A stretch of 64,000 nucleotides of DNA from an uncultured delta proteobacterium (lineage in GTDB: Bacteria; Myxococcota; Myxococcia; Myxococcales; Myxococcaceae), in contig CAWCKH010000003.1 in NCBI GenBank assembly GCA_963796055.1, forward strand, positions 512,001-576,000, in the 5' to 3' direction. The position numbers and the translations under genes are program-made. The notes below the pieces were generated by a model. It saw nothing but the letters and a program-made list of their open reading frames with translations, did no database searches and had not been told where the DNA came from. The stretch's first letter is position 1; each line of letters starts with the position of its first letter. Shown piece after piece: positions 46,243 to 64,000 of this stretch.

Positions 46243-46255
46243 AGAAGGGTTCTCC

Positions 46256-46525
46256 ATGCTCAACCAGTCGCCCCGGCACGCCTCCGTCTCGGCAACCGAA
46301 CTCCGCGAGAACATCTCCGAGCACATCGGACGCGTTCGCCACGGTCGGGAACGACTGGTCATTGAGAAGAACAGCAAGCCAGCGGCCGCGCTGATCTCCT
46401 ACAAGGACCTGGAGCTCCTAGAGGCCTTGGAGGACCGTCTGGATGTGCTTCTCGCGGAGAAGGCCCTCGCCGAGAAGGGCGCACGGGTGAGCCTCGAGGA
46501 GGCTGAGAAGCTCCTGGGCCTGTGA
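46256..46525 (+). CDS. Phd/YefM-family antitoxin
   Basis: VSATELRENISEHIGRV..LVIEKNSKPAAALIS; acidic C-terminus. Confidence 0.9.
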   Translation: MLNQSPRHASVSATELRENISEHIGRVRHGRERLVIEKNSKPAAALISYKDLELLEALEDRLDVLLAEKALAEKGARVSLEEAEKLLGL

Positions 46526-46869
46526 GCAAGCGCAAGGGGAAGAAGGGCAAGCCAGGGCCGTCCCGGGCTCAACCGAAGCCGCGGACGTACACGGTCGAGC
46601 TCGACCGCAAGCACGCGCTCGAGCCCATTGCCGCCGTCTCCGAGCCCGGGCTCAAGGCACGCATCTTCGCGGCCGTCCGGGCGCTCGCGACCGATCCCCG
46701 CCCGCCCGGCTGCAAGAAGCTCAGCGGGACGCGAACGACGTTCTGGCGCATCCGCGTTGGCGATTGGCGCCTGGTCTACACGGTCGACGACGCGAGGCTG
46801 TACGTACTCGTCGTCAGGGCCGGGGACCGGAAGGAGATCTACCGGCTCCTGGCCGACCTCCTGAGATGA
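46522..46869 (+). CDS. RelE/ParE-family toxin
   Basis: LATDPRPPGCKKLSG..WRIRVGDWRLVYTVDD..GDRKEIY; GTGA coupling. Confidence 0.92.
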   Translation: MSKRKGKKGKPGPSRAQPKPRTYTVELDRKHALEPIAAVSEPGLKARIFAAVRALATDPRPPGCKKLSGTRTTFWRIRVGDWRLVYTVDDARLYVLVVRAGDRKEIYRLLADLLR

Positions 46870-48250: not shown

Positions 48251-48360
48251 AGTCGTCGATCTCGTGGTCAGGCCGCCTGACCTTCGCGCTCAACGTGACG
48301 CTCGACGGGTGCTGCGACTATCGCGAGATGATCGTGGACGACGAGGGGCTCGACCACCTC
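48247..48360 (+). pseudogene. Dihydrofolate reductase/RibD-C-family 5' remnant
   Basis: GRLTFALNVTLDGCCDYREMIVDDE; similarity ends where the convergent gene begins. Confidence 0.6.
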
Positions 48361-49548
48361 CATCTCTCCGACGAGATCCCGCGAGTGCAGGAGGTGGCGG
48401 AGAAGCTCCCCGTCCTCGAACAGCTTGGCGATGGCGTACTCGACGGCAGCGTCGCCCTGCATGTCGGACGCCAGACGAAGGGCGACCAGCCGCTCCATGA
48501 GCGGAGCAGGGGCCACGATGAAGCCCATCCGTAGCCCGGGGGCCAGAATCTTGGAGAGCGACCCGAGGTACAGGACGTTTGCGCCATCTGGGTCGGCGGC
48601 GATGGGCGGCTCGGGACGACCCTCGTAGTGGAACTCGTGATCGTAGTCGTCTTCGATGATCGCAAAGCCATGGTCGATCGAGAGCGCTGCCAACCGCTTC
48701 CTTCGAGCAACGGTCATGACCGTGTTGGTTGGAAACTGATGATGCGGGGTGACGTAGACCGCCCTGACCTTGTGCGTCTTCAGAAGCGAAACCAGGGCCT
48801 CGACCTCGAGGCCCTCGTCGTCAACCGGGAGCGGCTTCATCTCCGCGCCGGCCAGCCGGAGCGCGGTCCAGGTCCCCGGATTGCCCAAGGCCTCCACGCC
48901 GACCACGTCCCCCGGTGAGAGCAGGGCGCGAGCGACCAGATCGATCGCCTGCTGGCTCCCCCGGGTCACCATGATGTCTTCCGGCGCGACGGAGAGCCCG
49001 CGGCTGTAGGAGAGCATGGTCGAGAGTCCACGGCGGAGATCCTCGTGACCGCGAGGGTCGCCATAGTTGAGGAGACTCCGGCCATGGCGGCGGAGGCCAT
49101 CCCGGAAAGCGCGGGCAAGCGCCGAGGTCGGGAAAAACGATCGCACGTCGGGCGCCGCCCGATAGAGGATCAGCGCGGTTCGCGGATCGGGTGGGAAGAT
49201 CAAAGGCAACGGCCGAGGCGGGGGCGGGACCGAGTAGGTCCTGGCTCGCGACGCCGGTGCGGCCCTGTCCAGCTCCTGCAAGGTCGACAGGGCCTCCTTG
49301 GCGACGAAGGTTCCACCGCCCCGTCGCGCCTGCACGAGCCCCTGGGCCATGAGCTCCTTGTAGCCGGCGATGATCGTATTGCGGTGCACCCTGAGCCGAG
49401 TGGCGAGGGCGCGCGTCCCCGGCAGGGGGTCCCCGGGCTTGAGGCGGCCGGTCCGGATGTCATTGGCGAGCGCTTCCGAGAGCTGCACGAACATCGGTGA
49501 GCCGCGGCGCGGATCGAGCGCAGCCGTGAGCAGCTCCCAGTTGAGCAT
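48268..49548 (-). pseudogene. MocR/GabR-family (GntR + PLP aminotransferase) regulator, 3'-truncated
   Basis: LPGTRALA..VHRNT, YVTPHHQFPT, IIEDDYD, SLSKILAPGLRMG; ends after GELLRHL without the usual C-terminal subdomain. Confidence 0.8.
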
Positions 49549-49646
49549 CGAGGGAATCGTACCGGTCCAGTCGAAATCGCAGAAGGGGATCTTCAGAGGG
49601 ATCCGATGGTCGGTATCCACTCGTGGGCTCTTCCGAAGGAGGACCC

Positions 49647-50305
49647 ATGCGCATCTTCACCCCACTCTTCACCACGGTGCTGCTCGGATGTGGAACGAAC
49701 GGACCACAGGCTCCCGAGACCGCGTCGCAGGAGCTCCGGCATCAGGGAGAAGACTCCAATCCCAACCCGATGCTCTTTCCCAAGGATGCGCGGCCCTACG
49801 GACGAAGCATCGACCGGTGGAGCGAGCTGCTCTGGAGCTACATCGGCGGTGCCGGGCAGCAGCCTCGGAACCGACATTTCACGGAGCTGCACCATCCCGC
49901 GGGATCGCGCGATCATGCTGCAGATGTCGTCGGCGCTGAACGACTATCCTTGTCCGGATCCCAACTTTCATCCGGCGCCAGGGCAGTCGCTCTATGATTT
50001 CCTCATCGGGGGCATCTCGCCGCTGTTCGATGGGGAGACTGGCTTCGTGGTCACCCTGGACGGAGTGAACGTCCAGGATCCGCTGAGCTATCGCTTCACC
50101 TCGGACGATGTCTTCGGATTCAAGCCGGATCTCAGCATCCAAGCATTCGACTCGTGTATCACCCAGAAGCACATGCTGGGGGTGGACCGATGGTTTCTAC
50201 CTTCTCTTCAAGCCCATGACGCCAGGCCAGCACACCATCGTCCTCAACGGACACGACATGACCGGCGTGCCGGTCACGCTCACCGAGCACCTGACGATCC
50301 AGTAG
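49647..50305 (+). pseudogene. Exported lipoprotein gene broken by two frameshifts
   Basis: AGGAGG + MRIF..LLGC..PYGRSIDRWS; then SCTIPRDR..TLDGV in a second frame; then DGFYLLFKPMTPGQHTI..* in a third. Confidence 0.7.
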
Positions 50306-50368
50306 GCCGGCCGGCCAAGGGCTCGGCGCTTCAAGCCGGGAAAACTGGCTCGAATCCGGTCGAGAACA
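50296..50368 (+). other. Degenerate tRNA-like element (pseudo tRNA-Glu or att remnant)
   Basis: Stem TCGGC-GCTTCAA-GCCGG and T-arm ACTGG-CTCGAAT-CCGGT at tRNA spacing; acceptor stem pairs only 4 of 7. Confidence 0.5.
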
Positions 50369-50695
50369 GATCGTTGGGCCCAGCGGCCCGTCGCAGGCGA
50401 GCATCTGCTCCGGGGGCACAGGCCGGGCGACCGCCGAGCCGGGCGAGGACCTTCTCGGCAGCGACGTACTCCGCCACCGCTCGCAGCTCCGCGCCTGGCG
50501 CCTCGAGGGGACCCGGGGCGTCTCGACGACCACCGCACTGCGGGAATGAATTCGACCGCTGCTGTCCGATCCAGTCTTCGCATGCCCAGGCTCACGTAGC
50601 AGCCCTCTTGCCAACCACGCTCCCGGACTCGACATCGGTCGCGGAGAGGTATTCACTTCCCGCCGCGCGGCGTGCGGCCGCCGAGGAGAGACGTC

Positions 50696-51016
50696 ATGCC
50701 CAAGTTCCTGATCAAGGCGAGTTACACGACGGAAGGCGTCAAGGGGCTGCTCAAGGACGGCGGTTCGGGCCGGCGCAACGCGGTCGAGAAGATGGTCAAG
50801 AGCGCGGGCGGGAAGCTGGACGGCGTCTGGTTCGCGTTCGGCGATGACGACGTCTTCGTGCTTGGTGACCTGCCCGACAACGCGAGCGCGGCCGCCGTCA
50901 GCCTGGCGGTGTCCGCGAGCGGCGCTGTGCGCTGCAGCACGACCCCACTCCTCACCATCGAGGAGATGGACGCGGCGACGAAGAAGTCGGTCGACTACCG
51001 CAAGCCCGGCGCCTGA
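50696..51016 (+). CDS. GYD-domain protein
   Basis: FLIKASYTTEGVKGL, GGKL..FAFGDDD, TTPLLT. Confidence 0.88.
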   Translation: MPKFLIKASYTTEGVKGLLKDGGSGRRNAVEKMVKSAGGKLDGVWFAFGDDDVFVLGDLPDNASAAAVSLAVSASGAVRCSTTPLLTIEEMDAATKKSVDYRKPGA

Positions 51017-51177
51017 GGACGCCCGCCAGCGCGAGACGCTGGCCTGAGCCGAGGCGCTGACCACCAGCTGGCTGCTGCCGGCCAAGTGGCCGAACTCGGT
51101 TGGCGCGTCGCGAACCCTCCGGATAGAGACGCAAAGACATCGCGAAACCCTGATCGGGGTCGAGAGGTCCAACGTCC

Positions 51178-52575
51178 GTGCCCACAGACCGCTCCCGGAG
51201 ACCTGATTCCACTCCAGGTGCGACAGGCGCGGCCACACAGTCTCTGCCCTGGCTTGACCGCCTGCTCCGCCCCTTCGCCGACGTGCGGGCCGGTGAAGCG
51301 GTCACCGCCCTCGTCCTCGCCGCGACCATCTTCCTGCTGCTGACGGCCTACTACCTGCTCAAGGTCATCCGCGAACCGCTCATCCTCCTCGGCGGTGGGG
51401 CAGAGGTGAAGGCCTATGCCGCGGCGGGTCAGGCGCTGCTGCTCCTCCCCGTCCTCCGTGCCCACGGCGCCATCGCCCGGCGGGTGAACCGGCTGACGCT
51501 CATCGCCGCGGTGCTGCTGTTCGTCGCCTCCAACCTCCTGGTCTTCTCGCTGCTGCTCCGCGCCAACGTCCCCATCGGGCTGCCGTTCTATCTGTGGGTG
51601 GGCACGTTCAATTACCTCCTGGTGGCGACGTTCTGGAGCTTCGCCAACGACGTGTACACGCCGGAGCAGGGGAAGCGGCTGTTCGCCATCGTCGGGATCG
51701 GGAGCTCCGTCGGGGCTCTGGCCGGCGCGGCGCTGGCGAGCTTCCTGCTGCGCCATCTGGCGCCGTTGCATCTGATGCTGGCCTCGGCCGCGCTGCTCGC
51801 CGCGGCGCTGGTTCCCTTCGCCTGGGTCAACGCGCAGCGGCGGTGCTGTCCGAAGGACCGCGGACGCGAGGCGCACCGGGACGAGCCGCTGACCGGAGCG
51901 GGCGGGTTCCAGGCTCTCCTCCAGGACCGGTATCTGCTCCTGATCGGTCTGATCACCATCCTCGCCAACTGGGTGACCAACTCCGGCGAGTACGTCCTGG
52001 ACAAGACGCTGATCGAGGTGGCGCACGCCAGCGCTTTCAGCGCCGCAGACGCCGGCCGCTTCGTCGGTCAGTTCAAGGCCCAGTACTTCTGGTGGGTCAA
52101 CGTCCTGGCCGTCGTGGGGCAGTTCTTCGTGGTCTCGCGCGTCCTGAAGTACCTGGGCGTGGGCGGCGCGCTGCTGGTGCTCCCCCTGGTGTCCATGGCC
52201 GGCGCGACCACCATCGTCCTCTTCCCCGTTCTGGCGCTCATCCGGACGGCGAAGATCGCGGAGAAGGGCGTCGAGTACTCCCTCGAGACCACGGCGGTGA
52301 ACGCGCTCTACCTCGTGGTCTCCCGAGACGCGAAGTACAAGGCGAAAGCGGTGATCGACACCTTTCTGGTCCGCGCCGGGGACGTCTGCGCCGCCGCTTC
52401 CATCTGGATCGGGACCCACCTCGGGGTCAGGACCTACGGGTTCGCCGCGGTCAATGTCCTGCTGACCGCGATCTGGGTCTTCGTGGCCTGGCAGATCCGC
52501 GCTCTGCACCATGCCCGGACCGGAGCCATCGAGTCGGCCGCGATTCCCGGCGCGGCGCCGGTGGCCTCGGCATGA
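51178..52575 (+). CDS. NTT/TLC (Npt1/Npt2)-like nucleotide transporter
   Basis: YYLLKVIRE, FWSFANDVYTPEQGKRLFAIVG, KYKAKAVIDT; about 12 TM helices. Confidence 0.85.
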   Translation: MPTDRSRRPDSTPGATGAATQSLPWLDRLLRPFADVRAGEAVTALVLAATIFLLLTAYYLLKVIREPLILLGGGAEVKAYAAAGQALLLLPVLRAHGAIARRVNRLTLIAAVLLFVASNLLVFSLLLRANVPIGLPFYLWVGTFNYLLVATFWSFANDVYTPEQGKRLFAIVGIGSSVGALAGAALASFLLRHLAPLHLMLASAALLAAALVPFAWVNAQRRCCPKDRGREAHRDEPLTGAGGFQALLQDRYLLLIGLITILANWVTNSGEYVLDKTLIEVAHASAFSAADAGRFVGQFKAQYFWWVNVLAVVGQFFVVSRVLKYLGVGGALLVLPLVSMAGATTIVLFPVLALIRTAKIAEKGVEYSLETTAVNALYLVVSRDAKYKAKAVIDTFLVRAGDVCAAASIWIGTHLGVRTYGFAAVNVLLTAIWVFVAWQIRALHHARTGAIESAAIPGAAPVASA

Positions 52576-55280
52576 GCGAACCGTCCCAGACGCCCGCGCT
52601 CCCCATGCGCCGGGCTCTCCCCTTCGCCGTGCTGCTCTTCCTCCTGGTGGCGGCGCACGGACTGCTGGAGACCGCGCGCGACGGGCTCTTCCTGACCGAG
52701 CAGCCGGTGACCCGCCTCCCCTGGCTGTACCTCGGGGTCACGGCGGGCGTGCTCGTCCTCACCCCCCTTCAGCGTCGCCTCTGGAGCGGCCATAGCCGCA
52801 TCGCCCTGCCCCTGACCCTGGCCGCCTCCGGAGCGGTGACCCTGGCCTTCTGGCTGGGAACCCGCTCGCACAGCGCGGTGCTCGCGTTCTACGTCTGGAC
52901 CGCGCTGTTCTCCTCGCTGGTCTTCGTCCAGTTCTGGCTCACCGCGGACGAGGCGTTCGGCGTGACCCAGGCCAAGCAGAGCTTCGGGTTCATCGCCGCC
53001 GGGGGGCTGGTGGGGGCCGTCTCCGGGAGTGCGCTGGCCAGGCTGGTGCTCGGCTACGCCGATCCACGGCTGCTGCTGCTGATCTCGGTGGCCCTGACCT
53101 TGGGCGCCGCGGGGCTGGGCTACGCCCTGGTCCGATCCTGCGCCGTCGGCGAGGCCAGCGAGCCGGAGATGACGGTGACCAGCGCGGTCCCCGGCTACAT
53201 GCGCGGCGATCCCTATCTGCGATTGCTGGCAGTCCTGGCCCTCCTGACCGCGGCCAGCGCCACCCTGATCGATTATCTGTTCAAGGCCTCGGTGTCGGCC
53301 GGAGTGTCCCCGGAGCGAATTCCCCGGCTGGTCGCCAACGTGTACCTGGGGCAGAACACGCTCGCGCTGCTGGTCGAGCTGGTGGTGGTGAAGACCCTGC
53401 TGCAGAGCACCGGCGTGACCCGCAGCCTCGCCCTGTTGCCCCTGGTCGTGCTGGGAGGCGCGTCGGGGTATGCGGTGGGCGGCGGCCTGGCGGTCGTGCT
53501 TGGTCTGAAGATCCTCGACGGCGGTCTCCGGCCCTCGCTCTACCGGGTGGGGACCGAGCTGCTCTTCCTTCCCATCGGCGCGGCGGTACGTCGGGTGATC
53601 AAGCCCTCCATCGACACGCTCGGGCAGCGCGGAGGGCAGGCACTGGTCTCGCTGCTTCTCCTCGGCGTGCCGCAGCTTCCGGACCGGGCGCAGATGGGCG
53701 CGGTCACCATTCTCTTGACGACCGTCGCCGTCGCCTGGGTCGGCGCCGCCCGGGTGCTGCGGCGCCATTACCTGAACCGTTTCCAGGAGGAGCTCGGCGC
53801 GGGCCGGGTCCAGATGGAGGGGGTGGGGACCCTGGACCTGGCCTCGGCGGAGATCCTGGTGAACGGGCTCGGCTCGTCCAACACCCGCGAGGTGCTGACC
53901 GCCCTGGACGTGCTCGCCCGTTCCAGGCGGCTCGGTCTGATTCCGGCGCTCATCCTCTATCATCCCGAGCCATCGGTGGTGCGCGCCGCGCTGGCGCACT
54001 TTTCCGGGTCGCGCCGGACGGACGTCGACGCGCTCCTCCCCTTCCTCTTTCGCCATCCCGACGAGGAGGTCCGCGCCGCAGCAGCGGAGCGGTGGCTCGA
54101 GGCGGGGAACACGCCGGAGGAGCTGCGCCGGGCGCTCGAGGACTCCAGCCCCCGGGTCCGTGCCGCGGCACTGGTCGCGCTCTCTTCCATCGACTCCGGC
54201 AAGGACGCACGAGAGGCCATGGCCCGCATCGTCGGCGATGGGCTCCCCGAGGCGCGGCGCGCGCTGGCCTGGGCCATCGCCAACGCCCCCCGCCCGGACC
54301 TGCTCCCGACGGTGGAGGGTCTCTTCCTCCGGGGAGACATCGAGACGCGCCGCGAGCTGCTCCGTGCCGCCCGCGGGTTACCCACCCCTCCGCCGGAGTT
54401 CGTCTCCGGGTTGATCTCCCTCCTTGCCCATCCGGTACTCCGCCCGGGAGTGAGGGAGGCGCTGGTCTCGGTGGGCGCGCCCGCCCGAGAGCAGCTGGAG
54501 GCGCTCCTTCTCGCTCGAGATACGCCCTTTCCAGTCGACCGGGAGCTGCCGGCGACGCTGGCTCGATTCCCTGCAGAAGCGGCGGCTCCCCCGTTGCTCC
54601 GGCGCCTGGTCCAGCCGCGCGGGGGGCTGTCCCGTTTCCGGTCCCTCCGCGCCTTGAACCAGCTCCGCCGCAGCAATCCCCGGCTGGCGCTGGATGAGGC
54701 CGCGCTCACCTCTGCCCTCGAGCTGGAGGTCGCCTCCGTCCTGAAGAACCGAGCGCTCCGGTTGACGGGACTGCGGATGGGCATTACCCCGGAACGGGAG
54801 AACCCCGCGGGGATGCTGCTGCTGGATCTCCTTCTGGACAAGGAGCGCCTGGCCGTCGAGCGCGTCTTCCGCGTGCTCGCGCTGCTCTTCCCCGGTGGAC
54901 GCCTGGAGCAGGTCTATCTCGGGGCGCGCTCGGAGAGCCCGCGGCGGCGCGACGCAGCCCGGGAGGTGCTGGTCGAGCTGCTCCGGGCGCCCTGGCGAGA
55001 GCGGGTGGTGATGCTCCTCGAGCCGGACCAGGTGGATCCCGCGACGGTCCAGCGGCTGCTCGGCCCCCAGCCGACGACCGAGAGCTTCGTCACCGCGCTC
55101 CTCGCCCAGAGCAGCGAGGTGGTCCGGCTCCTGACGCCCTGTCTGGCCCATGCCGAAGGCTGGGTGAGCACGGTGCCCAGGCTTCGCGCCGGTCCGCGCT
55201 GTGGCGATGCGGAGGCCGCGGCCCTCGCCGACCAGGCCATCCAGCAGCTGGAGCGACGGGCGGAGCAGCGCCATGGCTGA
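52572..55280 (+). CDS. NTT-like transporter fused to HEAT repeats
   Basis: LETARDGLFL, QFW..QAKQSFGFIAAGG, KPSIDT; then HPEPSVVRAAL, HPDEEVRAAA and DSSPRVRAAAL repeats. Confidence 0.85.
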   Translation: MSEPSQTPALPMRRALPFAVLLFLLVAAHGLLETARDGLFLTEQPVTRLPWLYLGVTAGVLVLTPLQRRLWSGHSRIALPLTLAASGAVTLAFWLGTRSHSAVLAFYVWTALFSSLVFVQFWLTADEAFGVTQAKQSFGFIAAGGLVGAVSGSALARLVLGYADPRLLLLISVALTLGAAGLGYALVRSCAVGEASEPEMTVTSAVPGYMRGDPYLRLLAVLALLTAASATLIDYLFKASVSAGVSPERIPRLVANVYLGQNTLALLVELVVVKTLLQSTGVTRSLALLPLVVLGGASGYAVGGGLAVVLGLKILDGGLRPSLYRVGTELLFLPIGAAVRRVIKPSIDTLGQRGGQALVSLLLLGVPQLPDRAQMGAVTILLTTVAVAWVGAARVLRRHYLNRFQEELGAGRVQMEGVGTLDLASAEILVNGLGSSNTREVLTALDVLARSRRLGLIPALILYHPEPSVVRAALAHFSGSRRTDVDALLPFLFRHPDEEVRAAAAERWLEAGNTPEELRRALEDSSPRVRAAALVALSSIDSGKDAREAMARIVGDGLPEARRALAWAIANAPRPDLLPTVEGLFLRGDIETRRELLRAARGLPTPPPEFVSGLISLLAHPVLRPGVREALVSVGAPAREQLEALLLARDTPFPVDRELPATLARFPAEAAAPPLLRRLVQPRGGLSRFRSLRALNQLRRSNPRLALDEAALTSALELEVASVLKNRALRLTGLRMGITPERENPAGMLLLDLLLDKERLAVERVFRVLALLFPGGRLEQVYLGARSESPRRRDAAREVLVELLRAPWRERVVMLLEPDQVDPATVQRLLGPQPTTESFVTALLAQSSEVVRLLTPCLAHAEGWVSTVPRLRAGPRCGDAEAAALADQAIQQLERRAEQRHG

Positions 55281-56229
55281 GATCGATCCACCCATCCTCG
55301 CCGAGCGCGTGCTCCGGCTGAGCCGCTCCGCACCGTTCGACATGATGGCCGCCGATCAGCTGGCGCTGCTGGCCGCAGCGGGCCGGGAGCAAGCCTTCGC
55401 CGGCCGCACGGTGCTGGTCCACGCCGGAGAACGTTCCTCGGCGCACTTCCTTCCGCTGGCAGGCCGACTGCGGCTCATCTCGGACGGGCGGGAGCTCCCC
55501 TGGCCCCAGCTTCACTCCGGGCTGGGAGCGCTGTCGGTGCTCGGTCGGGGCGTCTTCCCCGCGGACCTGGTGGCCGACCCCGGCACGGTGCTCCTGGTGC
55601 TCGATCAGGACGCCTTGGTCGCGGTCCTCGAGGAGCACGGGCGGCTGAGCCGGGCCGTGCTCCGGGTGCTGGCCTCCAAGCTGCAAACTGTCCGCGGGAT
55701 GATGGCCCCTCGACGGACTCCTCCTCCCGCGGGGGTGAGCGCGCGCCTGGACCTGGTCTCGCGGATGTTGCTCCTCCGCGAGGCTCTGGGTCTCGGCGCG
55801 GACGGGATGGCAGTGGTGGCCCGCCTGGCCCGGGTGGTCCACGCGCGGCGCTTCTCCCCGGGAGCAGCGCTCTGGGCGCCGGACCAGGTGGCGGACCTGG
55901 TCATCGTCGTCGAGGGCAGCCTCCGGCTCCACGGGAACGGGGCAGCAGAGCGGAACACCGAGCGGGGGGAGGCCCTGGGCCTGGTGGAGTCGGTGGCCGG
56001 CGTGCCGATGGAGGAGCAAGCGAAGGCCGTCGAGGAGACGACCGCGGTCGTCCTCAGTCACCCCGAGCTGACCGAGGCCATCGACGACGACGACCCGCTG
56101 TGCTTCGAGCTCATCCGCAGCTTTGCCGCGCAGATCTGGGCCGTGGTTCTCGCCGCGGAAGCGAGAGGCACCCCGTTCACCACCGTCGGCGCACCGGGGA
56201 GACCGCCGGCTACGACGTTGGCAGGATAA
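55273..56229 (+). CDS. Tandem cyclic-nucleotide-binding-domain protein
   Basis: Two units: ERVLRL..PF..FAGRTVLVHAGE and RMLLL..FSPGAALW..IVVEGSL..GEALG. Confidence 0.75.
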   Translation: MAEIDPPILAERVLRLSRSAPFDMMAADQLALLAAAGREQAFAGRTVLVHAGERSSAHFLPLAGRLRLISDGRELPWPQLHSGLGALSVLGRGVFPADLVADPGTVLLVLDQDALVAVLEEHGRLSRAVLRVLASKLQTVRGMMAPRRTPPPAGVSARLDLVSRMLLLREALGLGADGMAVVARLARVVHARRFSPGAALWAPDQVADLVIVVEGSLRLHGNGAAERNTERGEALGLVESVAGVPMEEQAKAVEETTAVVLSHPELTEAIDDDDPLCFELIRSFAAQIWAVVLAAEARGTPFTTVGAPGRPPATTLAG

Positions 56230-56284
56230 GGATCGACAGAGCACACCTCCGGGGCTGGTCCCGGGGCCACCGCGGAGCGAGCAC

Positions 56285-57760
56285 ATGCGGCCGAACATCT
56301 GCCTCCGGGTCTCTCGATCCTCCGGCCCGAGATGGGTGGGGCTCATGCTGGGCCTCGTCGTGGCCGAGGTGGCGCGGGCCGCCGAGGGTGCCGACGCAGG
56401 GACTCCGGTCGCGCCGGGCATCGCTGCCGCACCGGATGGCGGGGTTCCTCAGGCCGAGGTCCTGGCGCCGGACGGTGGGAGCAGCGAAGCGGCGCAAGAC
56501 GCTCCCCGGCGCGAGCGCGCGGACTTTCGAGGGCAGTCCGATCCGCCGCCGACGACGGGGGACGTGCTGATCTGGGTTCCCCGGGTGATCCTCCTCCCCG
56601 CCTATCTGGTCACCGAGTACGTCGTCCGGGTCCCCCTCGGCGCGCTGTCCACCACCGCGGAGAAGAACGACTGGCCGCAGTGGCTGTTCAACTTCTTCGC
56701 CTTCGGCCCCGAGCACCGGGGCGGCATCTTCCCCACCTTCTTCCTCGATTTCGGGCTGCGTCCGAGCATCGGGCTGCACTTCTGGTGGAACGACACCTTC
56801 GTCCAGAACAACAAGCTCACCGCCAATGCCTCGTGGGGCGGATCGAACTGGATCACCCTGGCGGTCGGGGATCGCTACACCTTCGACGAGAAGAACTCGA
56901 TCGCCATCGGAGCCCGATGGGCCCGACGGCCGGACAACCTGTATTACGGCATCGGGCCGGAGATCGACACCGACCTCCGCACCCGCTACGGCACCGACCT
57001 CATCTCGGGGGGCATCGAGTACGTCCACTCCCAGCGGGGCCTGGAGTTCAAGGTCGGGGCCCGCCTGGACCGGACCGTCTTCCGGAGCTACTCGTGCTGC
57101 AGCGATCCGACCCTGGCGCAGAGGGTGGAGCGAGGAGAGCTGCCCGCTCCTCCGGGATTCGAGGAGAACACCACCGCCGCCTCCATTCCCTTCCGGGTGG
57201 TCCTCGACACCCGTCCACCCGGGCCGATGCACCGGAGCGGCATCCGCACCGGCCTGGAGGTGGCCCCGGCCGTGGACGTGACCCGCGGGTTCGATCGCTC
57301 CTGGCTTCTCTACGGAGCGACGGTCCAGGGGTTCTGGGACATGACCGGCACCGGCCGGGTGCTCGGGCTCGGAGCATGGGCGGCCTTCGTCGACCCCCTG
57401 GGGAGTCAGCCAGTCCCGTTCACCAACTACGTGACGCTCGGAGGCGCTGACCCGTTTGCCGGATTCGTCACCGGGTCTCTGCGCGACCGGAGTGCCGTGG
57501 CGCTGCAGCTCTCCTACAACTGGCCGGTCTTCGTCTTCCTCGACGGAGTCGCCGCGGTCTCGTTCGGGAACGTCTTCGACGCGCATCTCCGAAACTTCGA
57601 CTTCGACCTGCTTCGCATGTCGGCAGAGCTCGGGGTCCGGACCCGAGGATCGGGCACCAGCTCGTTCCAGCTCATCATCGGGGTAGGCACGGAGACGTTC
57701 CGCCAGGGCTTCGCGCTGGCCACCTTCCGCTTCTCCTTCGGGGTCACCTATGGGCTCTAG
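56285..57760 (+). CDS. Omp85/BamA-TamA-like outer-membrane beta-barrel without evident POTRA domains
   Basis: Signal-like N-terminus; YYGIG, TLGG..GF..GSLRDRS (lid-loop like), FGNVF; aromatic C-terminal strand; start uncertain. Confidence 0.7.
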   Translation: MRPNICLRVSRSSGPRWVGLMLGLVVAEVARAAEGADAGTPVAPGIAAAPDGGVPQAEVLAPDGGSSEAAQDAPRRERADFRGQSDPPPTTGDVLIWVPRVILLPAYLVTEYVVRVPLGALSTTAEKNDWPQWLFNFFAFGPEHRGGIFPTFFLDFGLRPSIGLHFWWNDTFVQNNKLTANASWGGSNWITLAVGDRYTFDEKNSIAIGARWARRPDNLYYGIGPEIDTDLRTRYGTDLISGGIEYVHSQRGLEFKVGARLDRTVFRSYSCCSDPTLAQRVERGELPAPPGFEENTTAASIPFRVVLDTRPPGPMHRSGIRTGLEVAPAVDVTRGFDRSWLLYGATVQGFWDMTGTGRVLGLGAWAAFVDPLGSQPVPFTNYVTLGGADPFAGFVTGSLRDRSAVALQLSYNWPVFVFLDGVAAVSFGNVFDAHLRNFDFDLLRMSAELGVRTRGSGTSSFQLIIGVGTETFRQGFALATFRFSFGVTYGL

Positions 57761-58433
57761 AGAGCAGGATGTCACGCAGCCCCAGCACCCAGGCCAGCGA
57801 GGCGAGCCAGGCGCCGAGAACGTCGGTGGGGTGATGCACGCCCAGATACAGCCGCGAACCGCTGATCACCGCGGTGAAGGCCGCTCCGCCGAGGATCGCC
57901 ACCCATCGGTAGCGCGTGTTCCAGGCGAGCACGGCCACCGAGACCGCGAGCGCCATCGAGCCCATGGCGTGGCCGCTGGGGAAGCTGAAGCTCGTCTCCG
58001 GGGCGGGAGAGGGCCAGAGCACGGGGCGATCGCGTCCGAAGAGCCGCTTGGTCGCATCGCTCAGCAACCACGACCCGAGCATCGAGAAGGCGAAGAAGGA
58101 GAACCGCGCCGCCTCCCGTCGGATGAGCAGCCACAGCGCCAGGAGCACCGAGACGGGAATCACTCCGTACCAGGTGCCGACCCGCGAGGCGGTCAGCATC
58201 ACCCGGTCGGCCAGCGGGGAGGAATGGGCGTGGAGCCAGGTGAGCACCGCCACATCCCAGGGGGGTGGCTGGCGGTGAACCACCTCCCGCGCCAGGATGG
58301 CGAAGAAGCAGAGCGGGACCAGCACCCCCAGGAACAGGGCGAGGATTCGCCGCCGATGGCGGTTGAGCAGCTGGCCCAGGAAGTCCAGGAAGCGGCGACT
58401 CCCGGTCGCGGCCGGAGAATGCGAGGCATCCAC
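57744..58433 (-). CDS. PAP2-family membrane phosphatase
   Basis: KRLFGRDRP, SFPSGHA, SRLYLGVHHPTDV. Confidence 0.9.
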   Translation of the reverse strand: MDASHSPAATGSRRFLDFLGQLLNRHRRRILALFLGVLVPLCFFAILAREVVHRQPPPWDVAVLTWLHAHSSPLADRVMLTASRVGTWYGVIPVSVLLALWLLIRREAARFSFFAFSMLGSWLLSDATKRLFGRDRPVLWPSPAPETSFSFPSGHAMGSMALAVSVAVLAWNTRYRWVAILGGAAFTAVISGSRLYLGVHHPTDVLGAWLASLAWVLGLRDILLSRAHR

Positions 58434-60080
58434 GGGAACTGGATAGCGCGCTGGGCCTCCCTGGCGCTGCTGGAATGCGTGGCGGCCTGTGCTCCGAGCA
58501 TTCGACAGTTCTCCACGAAACCGGTGGTCCTCAAGGACGACGATCGCCGTCCGTTCCCGGGACCGATCGAGGAGTCGTTCTCCCCGCTGGGATGGGATGC
58601 AGCGGACCACATCCTCTTCCGACCGCTGAGCCACGCCTTCCTGCTCGAGCAGGGCTCCCCGGCGATCGACGTCAACGCGCTCGACGAGGTCCCGGACTCC
58701 AGCTGGTACGTGAACCGCATCAGCCGCCGGCCCATGTCCCCGGAGGAGATCGCCCGCGGAGCCTGTCACCGAACGGCGCCCGAGGAGGAGCTCCCGTGGA
58801 CGGTGGTGGGGGCCAAGCTGAACGGGGCCAATCCGGGGTTCCAGATCAAGACCGCTGCCGGGGCGAACTACCTCCTCAAGTTCGACGACCCCAAGCAGTT
58901 CGAGCGGGCCTCCACCGGAGACGTGGTGGGCAGCCGGCTCTACTACGCGGCCGGTTTCCAGGTGCCCTGCAACCGGGTGGTGTACCTCCGGAGCACCGAC
59001 CTGGTCGTCTCCGACAAGCCGCCGAAGGATGCCTCGAAGGTGGTCACCCGCGAGACGATCGACGAGATGCTGAAGTTCGCGCAGCAGGAGACGAACGGGA
59101 CGTACCGTGCGGTGGCCAGCGAGTTCATCCCCGGAAGACCGAACGGACCCTGGAACTACAGCGACCGCCGGGGGGATGATCCCAACGACCGGATCGACCA
59201 CCAGGACCGCCGCGAGCTTCGCGGCTCACGGGTGCTGGGGGCGTGGATCAACCACCACGACGCGCGCTCCCAGAACACCCTCAACACCTGGATGACCACC
59301 AGCGAGGGAATGGGGTACCTGGACCACTACGTCATCGACTGGGGCGACACCCTGGGAGGCCTGTCGTATGGCGACGAGTTCTCCCGACGGGTGGGCTACA
59401 CGTACTACATCGACTTCGGGCAGATTGGCGCCGACTTCATCACCTTCGGCATCCCCCAGCGGCCCTGGGAGCGCGCGAAGTACGGGCCGGCCGGGGAGAT
59501 CTTCGGCTACTTCAACGACACCGACTTCGTCCCCGAGGACTGGCATGTCGGCTACCCCAACGTCGCCTTCTCCGCGATGGAGGAGCAGGACGCCGCGTGG
59601 ATGGCGCGGATCATCGCCCGCATCGACGAGACCGCGATCGACCTGGTGGTGGACCAGGCGCGGCTCAGTGCGCCCATCGCCAGCTCGGAGCTGAAGCGGA
59701 TCCTGAAGGGGCGACGGCTGCGGATCCTCCAGCGTTACCTGACGCGGGTCTCGTCCTTGACCGATCCCGAGCTCGGGCAGGACGGGGTCACGTTGTGCGT
59801 GCACGACCGGGCGGAGGAGGCCGGCCTCGGGGCCGGTCCCGCGCCGGGCGTTCGACTCTGGTACTCGCCGACGGCCTCCCTGGGACTCGAGGTCGACCGT
59901 CCGGAGCCGGCCAAGCTGTGCGTGGTGCTGCCCAGGGGGGAGACCGGCTACCGGATCGTCGACCTGGTCACCGGCCGCCCCGGACAGGGACCGCTGCGGC
60001 TGCACCTTGCCGAGCAAGGCGGAGTCCTCCGTGTGGTGGGCGTCGAGCGCCCGGAAGGCAATCCCCCTCCCGGGAGCTGA
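58419..60080 (+). CDS. Lipoprotein with atypical protein-kinase-like fold
   Basis: Lipobox VAAC; KLNGANPGF loop, YLLKFD, WINHHDARSQN, YVIDWG. Confidence 0.75.
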   Translation: MRGIHGNWIARWASLALLECVAACAPSIRQFSTKPVVLKDDDRRPFPGPIEESFSPLGWDAADHILFRPLSHAFLLEQGSPAIDVNALDEVPDSSWYVNRISRRPMSPEEIARGACHRTAPEEELPWTVVGAKLNGANPGFQIKTAAGANYLLKFDDPKQFERASTGDVVGSRLYYAAGFQVPCNRVVYLRSTDLVVSDKPPKDASKVVTRETIDEMLKFAQQETNGTYRAVASEFIPGRPNGPWNYSDRRGDDPNDRIDHQDRRELRGSRVLGAWINHHDARSQNTLNTWMTTSEGMGYLDHYVIDWGDTLGGLSYGDEFSRRVGYTYYIDFGQIGADFITFGIPQRPWERAKYGPAGEIFGYFNDTDFVPEDWHVGYPNVAFSAMEEQDAAWMARIIARIDETAIDLVVDQARLSAPIASSELKRILKGRRLRILQRYLTRVSSLTDPELGQDGVTLCVHDRAEEAGLGAGPAPGVRLWYSPTASLGLEVDRPEPAKLCVVLPRGETGYRIVDLVTGRPGQGPLRLHLAEQGGVLRVVGVERPEGNPPPGS

Positions 60081-60092
60081 GCTCCGGGCGGG

Positions 60093-61064
60093 CTACCACC
60101 TCCCGGCGATGCTGATGCCCATCATCCCCGGGCCGATGGCCGGGGTGACGACGGTGGGCGTCTGTCCCTTCGCCACCGCGACGTGCAGCGCGGGAATGGC
60201 CCACCCGATGGTTCCGCCGAGCACCGCGCCGGCGATCACGTCGGTGGCCCAGTGGCGGTCGGCCATGATCCGCAGAACGCCGGTGAGGGTGGCCACCCCG
60301 ACCGTGGCCGGACAGGCCACGGCGCCCCATCCGGTGTGCGTGGTGTCGAGGTAACCGTGGTGGAAGCACTCCAGCGCCACCGCGGCGAAGACCAGCGTGG
60401 TGTGGCCGCTGGGGAACGACTGGTACTTGCTCCCGGTCTGGCAATCCTGGAGGTTGGGGTTGGTGACGCACTCCTGGACGAAGGGCCGCTCCCGGGCGGT
60501 GAGGTGCTGGAGCGAAAGGGCGGCGAAGGTGGCGGTGAGCAGCGTCTCGGCGTCCAGCACCATCAATCGCCAGGCGATGTCCCACCGCTCGTGCTCCACG
60601 CCGGCCACCAGGGTGGCGTTGATCAGCGGGAAGGCCGAGAGGGCAAAGGCGCCGACGTCGCTGAGGGTCGACGCCGTCGCCCGGCCGTTCTCGCTGGAGA
60701 GGCGGAGCCCGCCACGCACCCAGTCGTCGAAGCCATTCCCGGCCCACTTGGGTTCCGTGGGAGCGGACACGCCGAACTGGACGACGCTCAGCGCGCCGAC
60801 CAGTCCCCCGGTGGCCACGATGTCCCAGACCCCGACGGTGGGCAGTCCGTGCGCGGGCCAGGGCGGTGAAGCCAGGCTCGGGAGAGCGGCGGTGGCACCC
60901 GGAGGGGCGGCGTTCCCGGGAGCGGGCGGAACCGCCGGGGCGGGGACGACGGTCTCCGGGGCGGCGGCCGGAGGCGGAGGCTGCGGCGCCGTTTCGCCCG
61001 ACGACCGGGGCACGGCCGAGGCCTGGGCCATCACCGCGGCGACCACCACCGCCAGCGCATTCAT
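60093..61064 (-). CDS. PAP2-family phosphatase with signal peptide
   Basis: ARERP, SFPSGHT, RIMADRHWATDV. Confidence 0.88.
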   Translation of the reverse strand: MNALAVVVAAVMAQASAVPRSSGETAPQPPPPAAAPETVVPAPAVPPAPGNAAPPGATAALPSLASPPWPAHGLPTVGVWDIVATGGLVGALSVVQFGVSAPTEPKWAGNGFDDWVRGGLRLSSENGRATASTLSDVGAFALSAFPLINATLVAGVEHERWDIAWRLMVLDAETLLTATFAALSLQHLTARERPFVQECVTNPNLQDCQTGSKYQSFPSGHTTLVFAAVALECFHHGYLDTTHTGWGAVACPATVGVATLTGVLRIMADRHWATDVIAGAVLGGTIGWAIPALHVAVAKGQTPTVVTPAIGPGMMGISIAGRW

Positions 61065-61201
61065 CACGCGGGTCTTACCAGAACCGCCACCACGGCTTTC
61101 CCGGACTCGGGGCGGCGGCGGGCGCGGGAATCGCATCGCCAACGAATGACGAGGATCGAGCCAGGGCCTCGTGGCGGGACGTGCCCTCCCCGACGCCTCC
61201 G

Positions 61202-61217
61202 TGGCACGCCATCTGCC
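61202..61217 (+). promoter_or_regulatory. Putative sigma-54 promoter
   Basis: TGGCACGCCATCTGC (GG-N10-GC) upstream of urtA. Confidence 0.4.
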
Positions 61218-61553
61218 CCGTCCTCCATGCGAGTTGCAGGGCCGGGCAGACATCCGGGTCGCCACGGCACGGGCTCGAGGCTGTGACAAATTCGTTACCT
61301 GCCCGACCGATCCGACAAATCTGTCTGGCGGAGTGCGTCACGACCTCCAACTGGCCGCGGGATACCCGACCGTCAAGTTTCCGACCGGTCGGCAGGTGCG
61401 GACACTTTCGTTCCCTTTCGACTCGATTCCTACCTTTTCGTCTGATGGTCGGAATGTCAGCCCACCGCGCTCCTCAGGGCGGCGCGGCACGCTGTGCGTG
61501 GTCCAGCGCTTGCAGCCTCCGCTGTCGGCCCGCATGGGCCTAAGGAGATCGGA

Positions 61554-62795
61554 ATGACCAAAAGGGGCCTGGGGCTCACGGCATTGGCTTGTGCTCTCAC
61601 CTTCACGGCGTCGAGCGCGCGCGCGGAGGAGACGATCAAGGTCGGAATCCTCCACTCCCTCTCCGGGACGATGGCGATCAGCGAGACGTCGCTGAAGGAC
61701 GTGGCGCTGATGACCATCGACGAGATCAACGCCAAGGGGGGCGTGCTGGGAAAGAAGATCGAGCCGGTGGTGGTGGACCCCGCCTCCAACTGGCCGCTGT
61801 TCGCCGAGAAGGCCCGCCAGCTGCTCACCAAGGACAAGGTGGCCGCGGTCTTCGGGTGCTGGACCTCGGTCTCCCGCAAGTCCGTCCTCCCGGTGTTCGA
61901 GGAGCTGAACGGCCTGCTCTACTACCCGGTGCAGTACGAGGGCGAGGAGCTGAGCAAGAACGTCTTCTACACCGGAGCGGCCCCCAACCAGCAGGCGATC
62001 CCCGCGGTGGAGTACTTGATGTCCAAGGAGGGCGGCGGCGCGAAGCGGTTCTTCCTGCTCGGGACCGACTACGTCTACCCCAGGACCACCAACAAGATTC
62101 TCCGGGCGTTCCTGCACTCCAAGGGAATCACCGACAAGGACATCCAGGAGACGTACACGCCCTTCGGGCACAGCGACTACCAGACCATCGTCGCGCAGAT
62201 CAAAGCGTTCGGCGCAAGCGGGCACGCCGCCGTCGTCTCCACCATCAACGGCGACTCGAACGTCCCCTTCTACAAGGAGCTGGGCAACCAGGGCCTGAAG
62301 GCGACCGACATCCCGGTGGTCGCGTTCTCGGTCGGCGAGGAGGAGCTGCGGGGCATCGACACCAAGCCGCTGGTGGGCCACCTGGCCGCCTGGAATTACT
62401 TCATGTCGGTCAAGAACCCGGTGAACACCGCCTTCATCGCCCAGTGGAAGGCCTACGTGAAGAAGAACAACCTCCCCGGCGGTGACGCGCGCGTCACCAA
62501 CGACCCGATGGAGGCCACCTACGTCGGCATCCACATGTGGGCCCAGGCGGTGAAGAAGGCCGGGACCACCAAGGTGGACGCGGTTCGCGCCGCGATGAGC
62601 GGCCAGACCTTCGCTGCGCCCTCGGGCTTCACCTTGAAGATGGACGAGACCAACCACCACCTGTGGAAGCCGGTGATGATCGGCGAGGTGCAGGGCAACG
62701 GTCAGTTCTCGGTGGTGTGGAAGACCAGCAAGCCCGTCCGGGCGCAGCCCTGGAGCCCGTTCATCCCCGGCAATGAGAAGCGTGCCGAGCGCTGA
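61554..62795 (+). CDS. urtA: Urea ABC transporter substrate-binding protein
   Basis: KVGILHSLSGTMAISE, FGCWTSVSRK, YPVQYEG, GAAPNQQ, DYVYPR. Confidence 0.95.
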   Translation: MTKRGLGLTALACALTFTASSARAEETIKVGILHSLSGTMAISETSLKDVALMTIDEINAKGGVLGKKIEPVVVDPASNWPLFAEKARQLLTKDKVAAVFGCWTSVSRKSVLPVFEELNGLLYYPVQYEGEELSKNVFYTGAAPNQQAIPAVEYLMSKEGGGAKRFFLLGTDYVYPRTTNKILRAFLHSKGITDKDIQETYTPFGHSDYQTIVAQIKAFGASGHAAVVSTINGDSNVPFYKELGNQGLKATDIPVVAFSVGEEELRGIDTKPLVGHLAAWNYFMSVKNPVNTAFIAQWKAYVKKNNLPGGDARVTNDPMEATYVGIHMWAQAVKKAGTTKVDAVRAAMSGQTFAAPSGFTLKMDETNHHLWKPVMIGEVQGNGQFSVVWKTSKPVRAQPWSPFIPGNEKRAER

Positions 62796-64000
62796 GCCGC
62801 GCCGTTTCCTCACTCTGCTGATCCTGCTCACGGCGGTCGCGGCCCGCGCTGGCGAGGCCGCCCCGCCCGAGCCACGTCCGGCCCCGAGCCTCGATGCCGC
62901 CACCCTGGACCGTCTGGTCAAACCGGAGTCTCGCGACGAGACCATCGCTTCCCTGGTGGAAGCGTCCGACGTGCACGCTCTGCCCGTCCTCCGGGCGCTC
63001 CTGGAGGGGAACCTCTACGTCGGCCAGACGGTGCTGGTCGACCAGGAGGGTACGCTCCAGGATGCGCTCACCGGTGCTCCGGCATCGGTCGACCGTGAGC
63101 AGCTGGAGCAGGTGACGATCAACAACCGGCTCCGGCGCAGCCTGGAACGGGCGGTGGCGGCCCTCTCCCTCTTCGAGGGCTCCCCGGCCGACCGACTCGC
63201 CGCCGCGCGGGTGCTCCAAGAGAATCCGGCCCCGGAGGTGCTCCCGGCGGTCCAGAAGGCGCTCGCCGGCGAGAAGGACCCCAGGGTGAAGGAGGCCCTG
63301 AGGGCGACCGCGGCGATGCTCGCCCTGGCCAGCGACGATCCCGCCCAGCGGCTCGCCGCCATCGAGGAGCTCCGGAAGGTCCACGCCAAACGGCAGCTGA
63401 TGCAGCGCCTCGAGGTGGAGCAGGACCCCACGGCGCTCGCCGCGCTCAAGGACGCGATCCGCGACGTGGACCACGCGCTGGAGCGCGCGGCGATGGTCGG
63501 GCTCCTCTTCTCCGGCCTCAGCCTGGGGAGCGTCCTGCTGCTCGCCGCGCTCGGCCTGGCCATCACTTTTGGATTGATGGGCGTCATCAACATGGCCCAC
63601 GGCGAGCTGCTGATGGTTGGCGCCTACGCCACCTGGCTGGTCCAGACGGCATTTCGGGGGTCTCACCACTTCGACTGGTACCTGCTGGCCGCGCTCCCGG
63701 CGTCCTTCCTCGCCGCGGCGCTGGTCGGCGCGCTGCTGGAGATCACCGTGGTGAGGAAGCTCTACGGCCGGCCGCTGGAGACGCTGCTCGCCACCTGGGG
63801 CGCGAGCCTGCTCATCATCCAGGCGGTGCGCGTGGCCTTCGGCGCCCAGAACGTGGAGGTCTCGAACCCCAGCTGGATGTCCGGCGGAGTCGCCCTGCTC
63901 CCGGACCTGGTCCTGCCCTGGAACCGCATCGTGATCCTCCTCTTCTCCGCCACCGTCCTGCTCGGGGTGTGGGCCCTGCTCACCCGGACCCGGCTGGGGC
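62773..64000 (+). CDS. urtB: Urea ABC transporter permease, partial (runs off the window)
   Basis: GLSLGSVLLLAALGLAITFGLMGVINMAHGE, YGRPLETLLATWG. Confidence 0.92.
   Translation, partial: MRSVPSAEPRRFLTLLILLTAVAARAGEAAPPEPRPAPSLDAATLDRLVKPESRDETIASLVEASDVHALPVLRALLEGNLYVGQTVLVDQEGTLQDALTGAPASVDREQLEQVTINNRLRRSLERAVAALSLFEGSPADRLAAARVLQENPAPEVLPAVQKALAGEKDPRVKEALRATAAMLALASDDPAQRLAAIEELRKVHAKRQLMQRLEVEQDPTALAALKDAIRDVDHALERAAMVGLLFSGLSLGSVLLLAALGLAITFGLMGVINMAHGELLMVGAYATWLVQTAFRGSHHFDWYLLAALPASFLAAALVGALLEITVVRKLYGRPLETLLATWGASLLIIQAVRVAFGAQNVEVSNPSWMSGGVALLPDLVLPWNRIVILLFSATVLLGVWALLTRTRLG

Follow-up and report, generated by a model that had tools for sequence, protein, structure and literature searches.

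We describe here a conserved group of genes predicted to join nucleotide carriers, an outer-membrane barrel and an exported kinase. The group was found in a stretch of 64,000 nucleotides from an uncultured delta proteobacterium of the family Myxococcaceae (contig CAWCKH010000003.1, positions 512,001 to 576,000), which we call the window. Seven genes between positions 51178 and 61064 encode two predicted carriers of the NTT family, a protein with tandem cNMP folds, an Omp85-like barrel, a putative kinase lipoprotein (KIN) and two PAP2 phosphatases. The barrel, the kinase and the NTT form a conserved module. We give even chances to the reading that this module ships ATP for ADP through its carriers to feed a periplasmic kinase, whose mark PAP2 reverses. 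The wider proposal, that free-living Gram-negative bacteria export ATP to the periplasm via reversed NTTs and thereby power two families of outer-membrane-tethered kinases and their phosphatases, falls slightly short of that. The genes, with lengths in amino acids (aa), are as follows.

51178-52575, plus strand: NTT1, predicted single-domain NTT/TLC-family (MFS) inner-membrane carrier of the kinase-linked subfamily (465 aa; Pfam TLC, profiles and tree).
52572-55280, plus strand: NTT-HEAT, predicted fusion carrier (902 aa; Pfam HEAT_2 and weak TLC; profiles to NTT and to HEAT-repeat structures).
55273-56229, plus strand: tandem cNMP-fold protein with a degenerate phosphate-binding cassette, partner of NTT-HEAT (318 aa; PF00027 in two stretches).
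56285-57760, plus strand: predicted Omp85-superfamily barrel without POTRA domains, 'noNterm'-like (491 aa; apparent signal peptide, by eye).
57744-58433, minus strand: PAP2a, integral-membrane PAP2 phosphatase, antisense between barrel and kinase (229 aa; motifs C1-C3 intact).
58419-60080, plus strand: KIN, predicted exported kinase lipoprotein (Cys24; 553 aa; AlphaFold2 model, fold searches and conservation).
60093-61064, minus strand: PAP2b, PAP2 phosphatase with an apparent signal peptide, a recurrent satellite of the module (323 aa).

The seven genes at these coordinates are real. Their junctions measure, in order, -4, -8, +55, -17, -15 and +12 bp, the GC content at the third codon position is 0.87-0.91 for all seven, and codon usage is gene-like. 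An earlier note on this DNA had proposed this set of two NTTs, a cNMP protein, a barrel, a kinase lipoprotein and two antisense PAP2 genes; all seven open reading frames (ORFs) were confirmed, and the weak Pfam calls were backed by profiles or fold. The closest titled relatives are metagenome-assembled genomes of Myxococcaceae, and in locus L009, whose kinase is 88% identical, the gene order is conserved through KIN. Further, the same genome carries a second, split copy of the module on contig C4 (L081-L083; G000:C4 3.46-3.51 Mb), in which barrel and kinase are adjacent, cNMP and NTT-HEAT lie ~25 kb off and the NTT ~39 kb off, with a partial PAP2b match ~5 kb upstream. A gene for an MlaE-type permease is located ~4 kb downstream of that kinase.

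Of 578 confirmed genome loci around KIN relatives, the best 80 were examined for conserved neighbours, which were found by iterated profiles; some of these loci share a genome and many are short. The barrel was present in 66 of these 80 loci, any NTT in 36 (single-domain in 33, HEAT-type in 24), cNMP in 18 (a few of them unrelated), PAP2b in 16 and PAP2a in 6. When only the 34 loci of at least 20 kb were counted, the barrel was found in 30, any NTT in 17 (single in 16, HEAT-type in 11), cNMP in 9, PAP2b in 9 and PAP2a in 4. By chance, an NTT would be expected in ~1% of these longer loci (a rough estimate from 3 NTT genes per 6.5 Mb), against the 17 of 34 observed. Gene order and orientation are repeatedly shuffled among the loci, which argues for selection to stay together. 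Sorangium (L073) is a cultured genus with the module.

A second sample, which overlaps the first, comprised 301 Myxococcota genomes. KIN was matched in 30 of them, and after three with weak matches only (E ≥ 1e-5) were dropped, 27 remained. The barrel profile matched 72 genomes, and the 27 with a best E ≤ 9e-28 were identical to the 27 KIN genomes. The NTT profile matched 262 genomes, of which 29 did so at E < 1e-100, namely the 27 KIN genomes plus G126 and G295. The two genes were also missing together: in genus g1, G088 and G299 had neither KIN nor an NTT match (E ≤ 1e-10), and in genus g6 four genomes had neither KIN nor an NTT match at that threshold, whereas G068 had both. A close NTT-HEAT (E < 1e-170) was detected in 22 genomes, 20 with KIN together with G126 and G096; neither kinase family was found in G096. 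Among the seven KIN genomes that lack a close NTT-HEAT, four have another NTT-HEAT no farther than ~3 kb from the barrel (e.g., L210). The unpublished genome G184 is included only in the tally of 262 and in that of NTT-HEAT genomes given below. The co-occurrence that the earlier note had named as a check on its proposal was therefore upheld in Myxococcota, strong matches to KIN and to the barrel occupying the same 27 of 301 genomes.

KIN had no match to any Pfam or NCBIfam family at E ≤ 0.1, and hence none to the Fam20C (PF06702) or CotH models. A scan of the 301 genomes with PF06702 likewise gave no match anywhere, and is uninformative because the controls were silent too. Relatives of KIN numbered 1173 among 7998 scored candidates (1130 clusters at 50% identity at E ≤ 1e-30). 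The nearest ESM Atlas clusters are unnamed and commonest in Acidobacteriota and Myxococcota, and the nearest named ones (score 0.78-0.80), to be taken as leads only, are Fam20C, HipA_2 and PI3/4-kinase. The AlphaFold2 model of KIN (pLDDT 92.3, pTM 0.91) matched the atypical kinase fold group (PI4K2/Fam20/CtkA/CotH/HipA) at Z 10-14: CtkA at Z 14.2 (root-mean-square deviation (rmsd) 3.8, 227 residues aligned), Fam20C at Z 14.1 (4.1, 259), Hydra Fam20 at Z 13.4, PI4K2alpha at Z 12.7 (5.0, 244) and CotH at Z 12.1 (4.4, 236). Foldseek was weakly concordant (E ~4e-4). The kinase domain spans residues ~116-444 and is followed by an FnIII/Ig-like domain (~445-540), whose Z of ~7 to FnIII/Ig folds is the level of a common arrangement.

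The residues expected of a kinase are conserved among 107 diverse relatives as follows: K154 in 99, E162 in 77, D281 in 104, N286 in 100 and D307 in 105. By motif and secondary structure, without residue-level superposition, we assigned these on the model as the probable beta3 Lys (K154), alphaC Glu (E162), catalytic Asp/Asn (D281/N286) and metal-binding Asp (D307). Among 86 close relatives, K133 is invariant and K154 is replaced by Glu in 19, in which D281 and D307 are retained; these 19 are possibly a variant or pseudokinase subgroup. KIN begins with a hydrophobic signal and the lipobox VAA-C24. Cys24 is retained in 83 of the 86 close and 85 of the 107 diverse relatives (75 and 70, respectively, pass when the lipobox is scored by regular expression), and some relatives without Cys24 show apparent ordinary signal peptides. 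All 86 close relatives have the pairs C116/C184 and C460/C501, and in the diverse set the two members of each pair are equally frequent (37/37 and 55/55); this invariance and co-variation suggest two disulfides. Given the fold, the intact motifs, the conserved Cys24 and the disulfide-like Cys pairs, KIN is most likely an exported, active enzyme, which agrees with what the earlier note had proposed for it. The fold relatives of KIN that were listed all use ATP, and several were solved with ATP, ADP or AMP. KIN had no match among plasmids.

A 776-codon ORF at 57750-60080 was considered as the kinase gene and rejected, because its first ~220 codons evolve like the antisense PAP2a (plus-frame differences by codon position of 49/17/25, versus 42/27/122 in the kinase body) and because a start-like codon lies 23 codons ahead of the lipobox Cys in four of four genomes checked. 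No stop codon interrupts the plus frame at 57750-58418, which runs across PAP2a and on into the kinase gene, in the window itself or in L007, L009 and L010. This frame can mislead gene callers, and long starts are seen in P0002 and P0009. In L009, ATC is the likely kinase start.

The barrel of the window matched Pfam Omp85 at E 0.026, under the cut-off. PF01103 was matched at E ≤ 0.01 by 44 of 67 barrel relatives, outside which the trimmed copy of the window falls, and the family profile matched BamA (4k3c, E 5e-5). On this profile evidence, the barrel can be placed in the Omp85 superfamily. No Pfam match to POTRA was found in the 491 aa, of which the profile spans all but a short N-terminal part. 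A C-terminal Phe is present in 46 of the 67 relatives and the RG(F/Y) lid motif in 33; the copy in the window has AGF at the lid motif and a C-terminal Leu. The barrel lies within 1 kb of the kinase in 54 of 58 kinase copies, and P0140 is a natural fusion of the two with the kinase at the N terminus, a position that is periplasmic in Omp85 proteins. The partnership of kinase and barrel suggested earlier is thus borne out by adjacency and by fusion. An ORF of L049 that reads Omp85 then kinase was not counted as a fusion, since a stop codon has probably been lost there. When longer, fused versions of KIN were sought, two proteins emerged, neither joined to a barrel, although an empty outcome of such a search is weak. 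Two barrel-kinase pairs occur in each of four loci, L074 (7229-13663) and L078 (7148-13645), both tandem, and L033 and L054.

The two genomes with a close NTT and no KIN, G126 and G295, are both explained by a second kinase family. In each, the gene upstream of the NTT encodes a protein of ~855 aa that bears the motifs GDWDRH and IPEDRD and has an Omp85 domain at its C terminus. The model of P0333, a Vicinamibacteria record (pLDDT 90), matched the TamA barrel at Z 28.0 (rmsd 2.9, 291 aligned), and its residues ~60-370 matched PI4K2alpha (Z 15.0), CotH (Z 14.6) and CtkA (Z 13.2). When the profiles of KIN and of this family were compared, the probability was 17% over 43 columns; the profiles do not align, and the two families are linked by fold, not by sequence. 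The second family had 1347 matches among 8000 candidates, with strong matches in 11 of the 301 Myxococcota genomes. Among Atlas clusters it is most frequent in Gemmatimonadota and Bacteroidota, and one cluster carries Metallophos on 19% of its members. The family also matched the central part of a protein from Fulvitalea that is annotated 'metallophosphoesterase', so that at least this one Bacteroidota 'Metallo'-type Omp85 appears to read phosphatase-kinase-barrel. Other examples of the family are found at L085:9686-12244, L086:1656-4235 and L104:10816-14496.

We examined the best 80 of 559 metagenome loci around the second family. They contain NTT in 11, cNMP in 11 (several of which belong to a TPR type that is unrelated) and PAP2 in 9, and a lipoprotein metallophosphoesterase lies upstream in 9. 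PPK1 was found in 6, PPK2 in 4 and DUF4956 in 5. In L181, PAP2, NTT-HEAT, cNMP, NTT and the kinase-barrel fusion stand in a row, and in L212 and L213 an ABC (ATP-binding cassette) transporter and a PLD-family gene flank the second family. Two of three plasmid regions have genes for PAP2 or undecaprenyl-diphosphate phosphatase nearby. Polyphosphate-related genes were noted near the family in L159, L161, L162, L171, L131, L139, L147 and L149. A gene of the Pycsar-effector family stands beside the second-family barrel in a Bacteroidota plasmid (L104:6730-9420, with an adenylate/guanylate cyclase) and in a Myxococcota locus (L214:12223-13419).

Both carriers can be assigned to the NTT/TLC (AAA) family from their profiles. 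NTT1 matched Pfam TLC (PF03219) at E 4e-8, over the cut-off, and the profile of its family matched the solved NTT1 chains 9j3n (E 5e-37) and 9j3j (E 4e-29). NTT-HEAT matched HEAT_2 at E 5e-12 and TLC at E 2e-4, just under the cut-off, and its profile matched 9j3n (E 5e-20) and HEAT-repeat structures. PF03219 was matched in none of 14 control genomes. In a quick tree of 79 NTT domains, from which six duplicate loci were left out, the singles linked to either kinase formed one clade of 39 rows (SH-aLRT 99), except those in a smaller clade that has Lys at the site of AtNTT1 K527; four kinase-free singles were set apart (SH-aLRT 100). The smaller clade holds 5 of the 33 KIN-linked singles and one second-family row. 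Six of seven full-length single NTTs of the second family group with the kinase-linked ones (five, and one from a two-kinase locus, in the clade of 39 rows), and that of L181 is of the Lys type. Kinase-linked rows thus fall in two clades: the kinases have been joined to no fewer than two lineages of NTT, and NTTs to both families of kinase. The NTT link put forward earlier is strong and recurs with the second family. NTT-HEAT genes without a kinase are very common in Myxococcota (L204-L209, L084 and L095 were examined). In L206, one has a transglutaminase-like gene on one side and cNMP, HEAT and HD-domain genes on the other, L207 carries two in tandem, and in L084 and L095 a kinase-free single NTT lies downstream of an aminotransferase gene.

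The cNMP-fold protein matched cNMP_binding (PF00027) at E 4e-13 in two stretches. Its gene overlaps that of NTT-HEAT by 8 bp and follows it in relatives too. A functional phosphate-binding cassette has the motif G-E...R-x-A/T. The cassette Glu and Arg are absent from both domains of the window protein (alignment, by eye), and the Arg is present in only some members of this poorly conserved family. Control of the window copy by cAMP is therefore unlikely, and the cNMP control claimed in the earlier note is doubtful.

The PAP2 family is recognized by the motifs C1 (KxxxxxxRP), C2 (PSGH) and C3 (SRxxxxxHxxxD), and the two proteins of the window matched Pfam PAP2 at E 5e-18 and 3e-15, both over the cut-off. 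PAP2a has all three motifs and resembles SepP, PgpB and YbjG (undecaprenyl-diphosphate and phosphatidylglycerophosphate phosphatases), below the cut-offs of those models. PAP2b keeps C2, C3 and the RP of C1, in which the Lys is replaced. PAP2a lies in the barrel-kinase junction, and in relatives without PAP2a the barrel stop and the kinase start overlap there, so that PAP2a is here a late antisense insertion. PAP2b is found in either orientation among the loci, and a related gene stands between two second-family genes in L213. Thus, of the two PAP2 genes earlier taken as parts of the module, PAP2b (16 of 80 loci) kept its place, whereas PAP2a (6 of 80) is a local insertion.

On the reading that we prefer, KIN would be tethered to the outer membrane on its periplasmic side and docked under the barrel; such docking is suggested because the fusions put the kinase in the N-terminal position of POTRA. 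NTT1, alone or with NTT-HEAT, would exchange ATP out for ADP in without phosphate and supply KIN. This exchange would be electrogenic and favoured by the inside-negative membrane potential. The HEAT repeats and the cNMP-fold protein would gate it from the cytoplasm, probably not through cAMP, and PAP2b, or a metallophosphoesterase in other lineages, would remove the phosphate. As for the substrate, a membrane-bound component of the envelope (a lipid head group or lipid-linked glycan, for example) comes close to an even chance, an envelope protein is somewhat less probable and a small molecule entering through the barrel is unlikely. The lipid-like substrate is weakly favoured because of the PAP2, ABC transporter and PLD-family neighbours.

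To weigh the putative transport of ATP by the carriers of the window, their residues were read by placing the numbering of AtNTT1 on 9j3j with an offset of 84 (which fits K155, E245 and K527) and then across the HMMER alignment. NTT1 keeps the basic pair of the first transmembrane helix (TM1; K62 and R65) and, as E271, the equivalent of AtNTT1 E385. Against ATP export, the column of E245 holds Gly142 in NTT1 and that of K155 probably Ala82, next to a gap in the alignment, a conserved Lys78 lying four residues before it. The K527 site is Asp402 in NTT1 and Gln in NTT-HEAT. NTT1 scored 29.6 bits against NCBIfam TIGR00769, with a cut-off of 387.2. Both carriers lack the K527 Lys, and NTT1 appears to lack the E245 and probably the K155 equivalent; the carriers thus do not appear to be canonical ATP/ADP+Pi exchangers, in all of which the Lys at AtNTT1 527/PamNTT1 446 is reported to be conserved (PMC2606016). 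Over the tree set, this site is Asp in 44 and Lys in 7 of 51 singles and Gln in 16 of 28 HEAT fusions. Asp is also present in 10 of 11 singles with no kinase nearby, so that it is not a mark of the module, another point against the reading. A new conserved Lys359 may compensate for the missing Lys.

The published mutants at this site cut both ways. In PamNTT1, K446Q and K446E are reported to lose Pi transport, the Km for ADP-in/ATP-out falling from 1401 to 68 (K446Q) and 29 uM (K446E), a 20- to 50-fold gain in affinity, and that for ATP-in/ADP-out rising from 8.6 to 274 and 552 uM, a 30- to 60-fold loss (PMC2606016). Such a shift would be what an exporter needs, because the inside-negative potential favours ATP4- moving out against ADP3- moving in. 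Two further reports belong with the points against export: K446E had a low Vmax for ADP-in/ATP-out, from which its authors considered ATP export possibly impaired (PMC2606016), and AtNTT1 K527E bound no ATP, while K155 mutants lost nucleotide binding (PMC3306366). So do several counts. A close NTT lies within 10 kb of the kinase in only 9 of the 27 genomes, and the 262 of 301 genomes with NTT homologues, like the at least 218 with NTT-HEAT, mostly lack either kinase. Near the second family, an NTT was found in only the 11 of 80 loci, or 6 of 26 of at least 10 kb, and within 12 kb in none of the three plasmid regions read out of six matches; some of these loci carry polyphosphate genes instead of the NTT. 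In addition, the E-value cut-offs were set with the data already in view, genes next to kinases supplied the profiles, and genomes of close kin do not count as independent cases.

Among the alternatives, trans-envelope signalling or product uptake survives best, although we regard it as unlikely. Here the barrel-kinase unit would act in the periplasm with polyphosphate or scavenged ATP as donor, not with ATP supplied by the NTTs; these would import or sense its product (ADP, another nucleotide or NAD), while NTT-HEAT and the cNMP protein would pass a signal on to the cytoplasm. NAD may be a cargo of PamNTT4-like NTTs (PMC5381601), and CotH, a polyphosphate polymerase and DUF4956 form a published gene group (10.1101/768473). 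The canonical ATP-binding residues are missing from our carriers, a kinase-free NTT-HEAT stands beside HD-domain and HEAT proteins in L206, and VTC and DUF4956 occur in KIN locus L043 (1190-2737), in addition to the PPK1, PPK2 and DUF4956 genes of the second-family loci. However, polyphosphate genes were among the recurrent clusters in only 1 of 80 KIN loci, and the fold relatives listed for KIN all use ATP. Further, PPK1 and PPK2 are cytoplasmic and hence leave the supply of a periplasmic donor unanswered.

Nucleotide scavenging, in which the barrel would admit nucleotides or nucleosides, PAP2 and the kinase would adjust their phosphorylation and the NTTs would import them, is improbable. Characterized NTTs are described as importers in parasites and plastids (PMC5381601), and phosphatases facing the periplasm recur in the module. 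However, BamA and TamA barrels are reported to be closed to the outside (PMC4104836), and the lid motif is kept in 33 of 67 barrels here. Moreover, a periplasmic kinase would still require a phosphoryl donor, and no nucleoside salvage genes were found among the recurrent neighbours. More improbable still is a contact effector displayed or secreted by the barrel, as proposed for the Omp85 protein PlpD, that would use the ATP of prey or competitors while the NTTs take up released nucleotides: many myxobacteria are predators and CtkA, the top fold match of KIN, is a secreted kinase, but the lipid anchor and the partner phosphatases are conserved, POTRA domains are absent, no immunity-like gene recurs, and the two genera of this family with the most genomes sampled yielded no strong KIN match (g5, none in 19; g9, a single weak match in 29).

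Other genes of the window flank the locus. An exported protein at 44285-45703 (plus strand) has PPFPEYTSAH and SRLYGGIHY motifs and is presumably vanadium haloperoxidase-like (PAP2 superfamily). By eye, 46106-46869 (plus strand) encodes an apparent Phd/YefM antitoxin and RelE/ParE toxin pair, and 48268-50250 holds a GntR/MocR-like regulator (minus strand) and a divergent lipoprotein-like gene (plus strand), both apparently frameshifted in the ORF list. Genes for a urea/amide ABC transporter (61494-64000, plus strand; Peripla_BP_5, E 3e-168) start 429 bp past PAP2b; such genes were not among the recurrent neighbours of the module. A search of Rfam gave no match within 49000-64000, no sigma-70 promoter was found, and the single terminator-like site scored below the shuffle mean.

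The periplasm is held to be free of ATP, and cytoplasmic ATPases or the proton motive force are invoked to explain how envelope machines work. If our reading is true, an ATP exporter feeding a periplasmic kinase would break this rule. A first role would likewise be assigned to NTTs in free-living bacteria, for which PMC5381601 left the function open, and to the Omp85 subfamilies that are POTRA-less or of the 'Metallo' type, for which PMC4104836 did the same. No description of the whole system was found in the literature searched, which was mostly without subscription journals; the supplements of PMC5381601 and PMC4104836 may list its proteins. Within that search, the earlier claim that no such system has been characterized stands for the whole set; it does not stand for the pair of NTT-HEAT and cNMP, which is published (PMC5381601).

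Compared with known systems, the window fits the clade in which NTT-HEAT is directly followed by a gene for a cNBD (cyclic-nucleotide-binding domain) in free-living bacteria, including Deltaproteobacteria, with function not known (Major, Embley and Williams 2017, PMC5381601): it has the fusion and the adjacent cNBD gene. In contrast to that main text, which gives no barrel, kinase or phosphatase partner, the cNBD here is tandem and degenerate, a single NTT lies ahead of the fusion, and all three partners are present. The carriers are like AtNTT1, PamNTT1 and chlamydial NTT1 (9j3j, 9j3n) in the TM1 basic pair, the E385 equivalent and the YSL...K.K..ID motifs. They differ from the canonical exchangers at K527 (Asp or Gln), E245 (Gly) and K155 (probably Ala), in their free-living host and in the export proposed for them.

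The barrel is POTRA-less like the 'noNterm' Omp85 proteins, which are related to the 'Metallo' barrels (Heinz and Lithgow 2014, PMC4104836), but here it is paired with a kinase, a word absent from that main text. Unlike BamA, TamA and TpsB, it lacks N-terminal POTRA domains, and the Bacteroidota 'metallophosphoesterase' differs from the 'Metallo' type as described in holding an apparent kinase domain between phosphoesterase and barrel. Fam20 kinases are reported to act outside the cytosol, on proteins or glycans (PMC7948968, PMC12189002). KIN is predicted to share the atypical kinase fold of Fam20C, Fam20B and CotH at 8-12% identity, but would be a lipoprotein tied to an outer-membrane barrel, so that the analogy is functional only. 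For kinases of the secretory pathway, lumenal ATP is imported by a carrier. An ATP-powered kinase and phosphatase at the outer membrane would be the bacterial counterpart of secretory-pathway phosphorylation, with NTTs acting like mitochondrial ATP export. By analogy, the closest functional parallel to the module would be a kinase of the secretory pathway that a nucleotide exchanger supplies, although the module lies outside the Fam20C, CotH and canonical NTT1 families.

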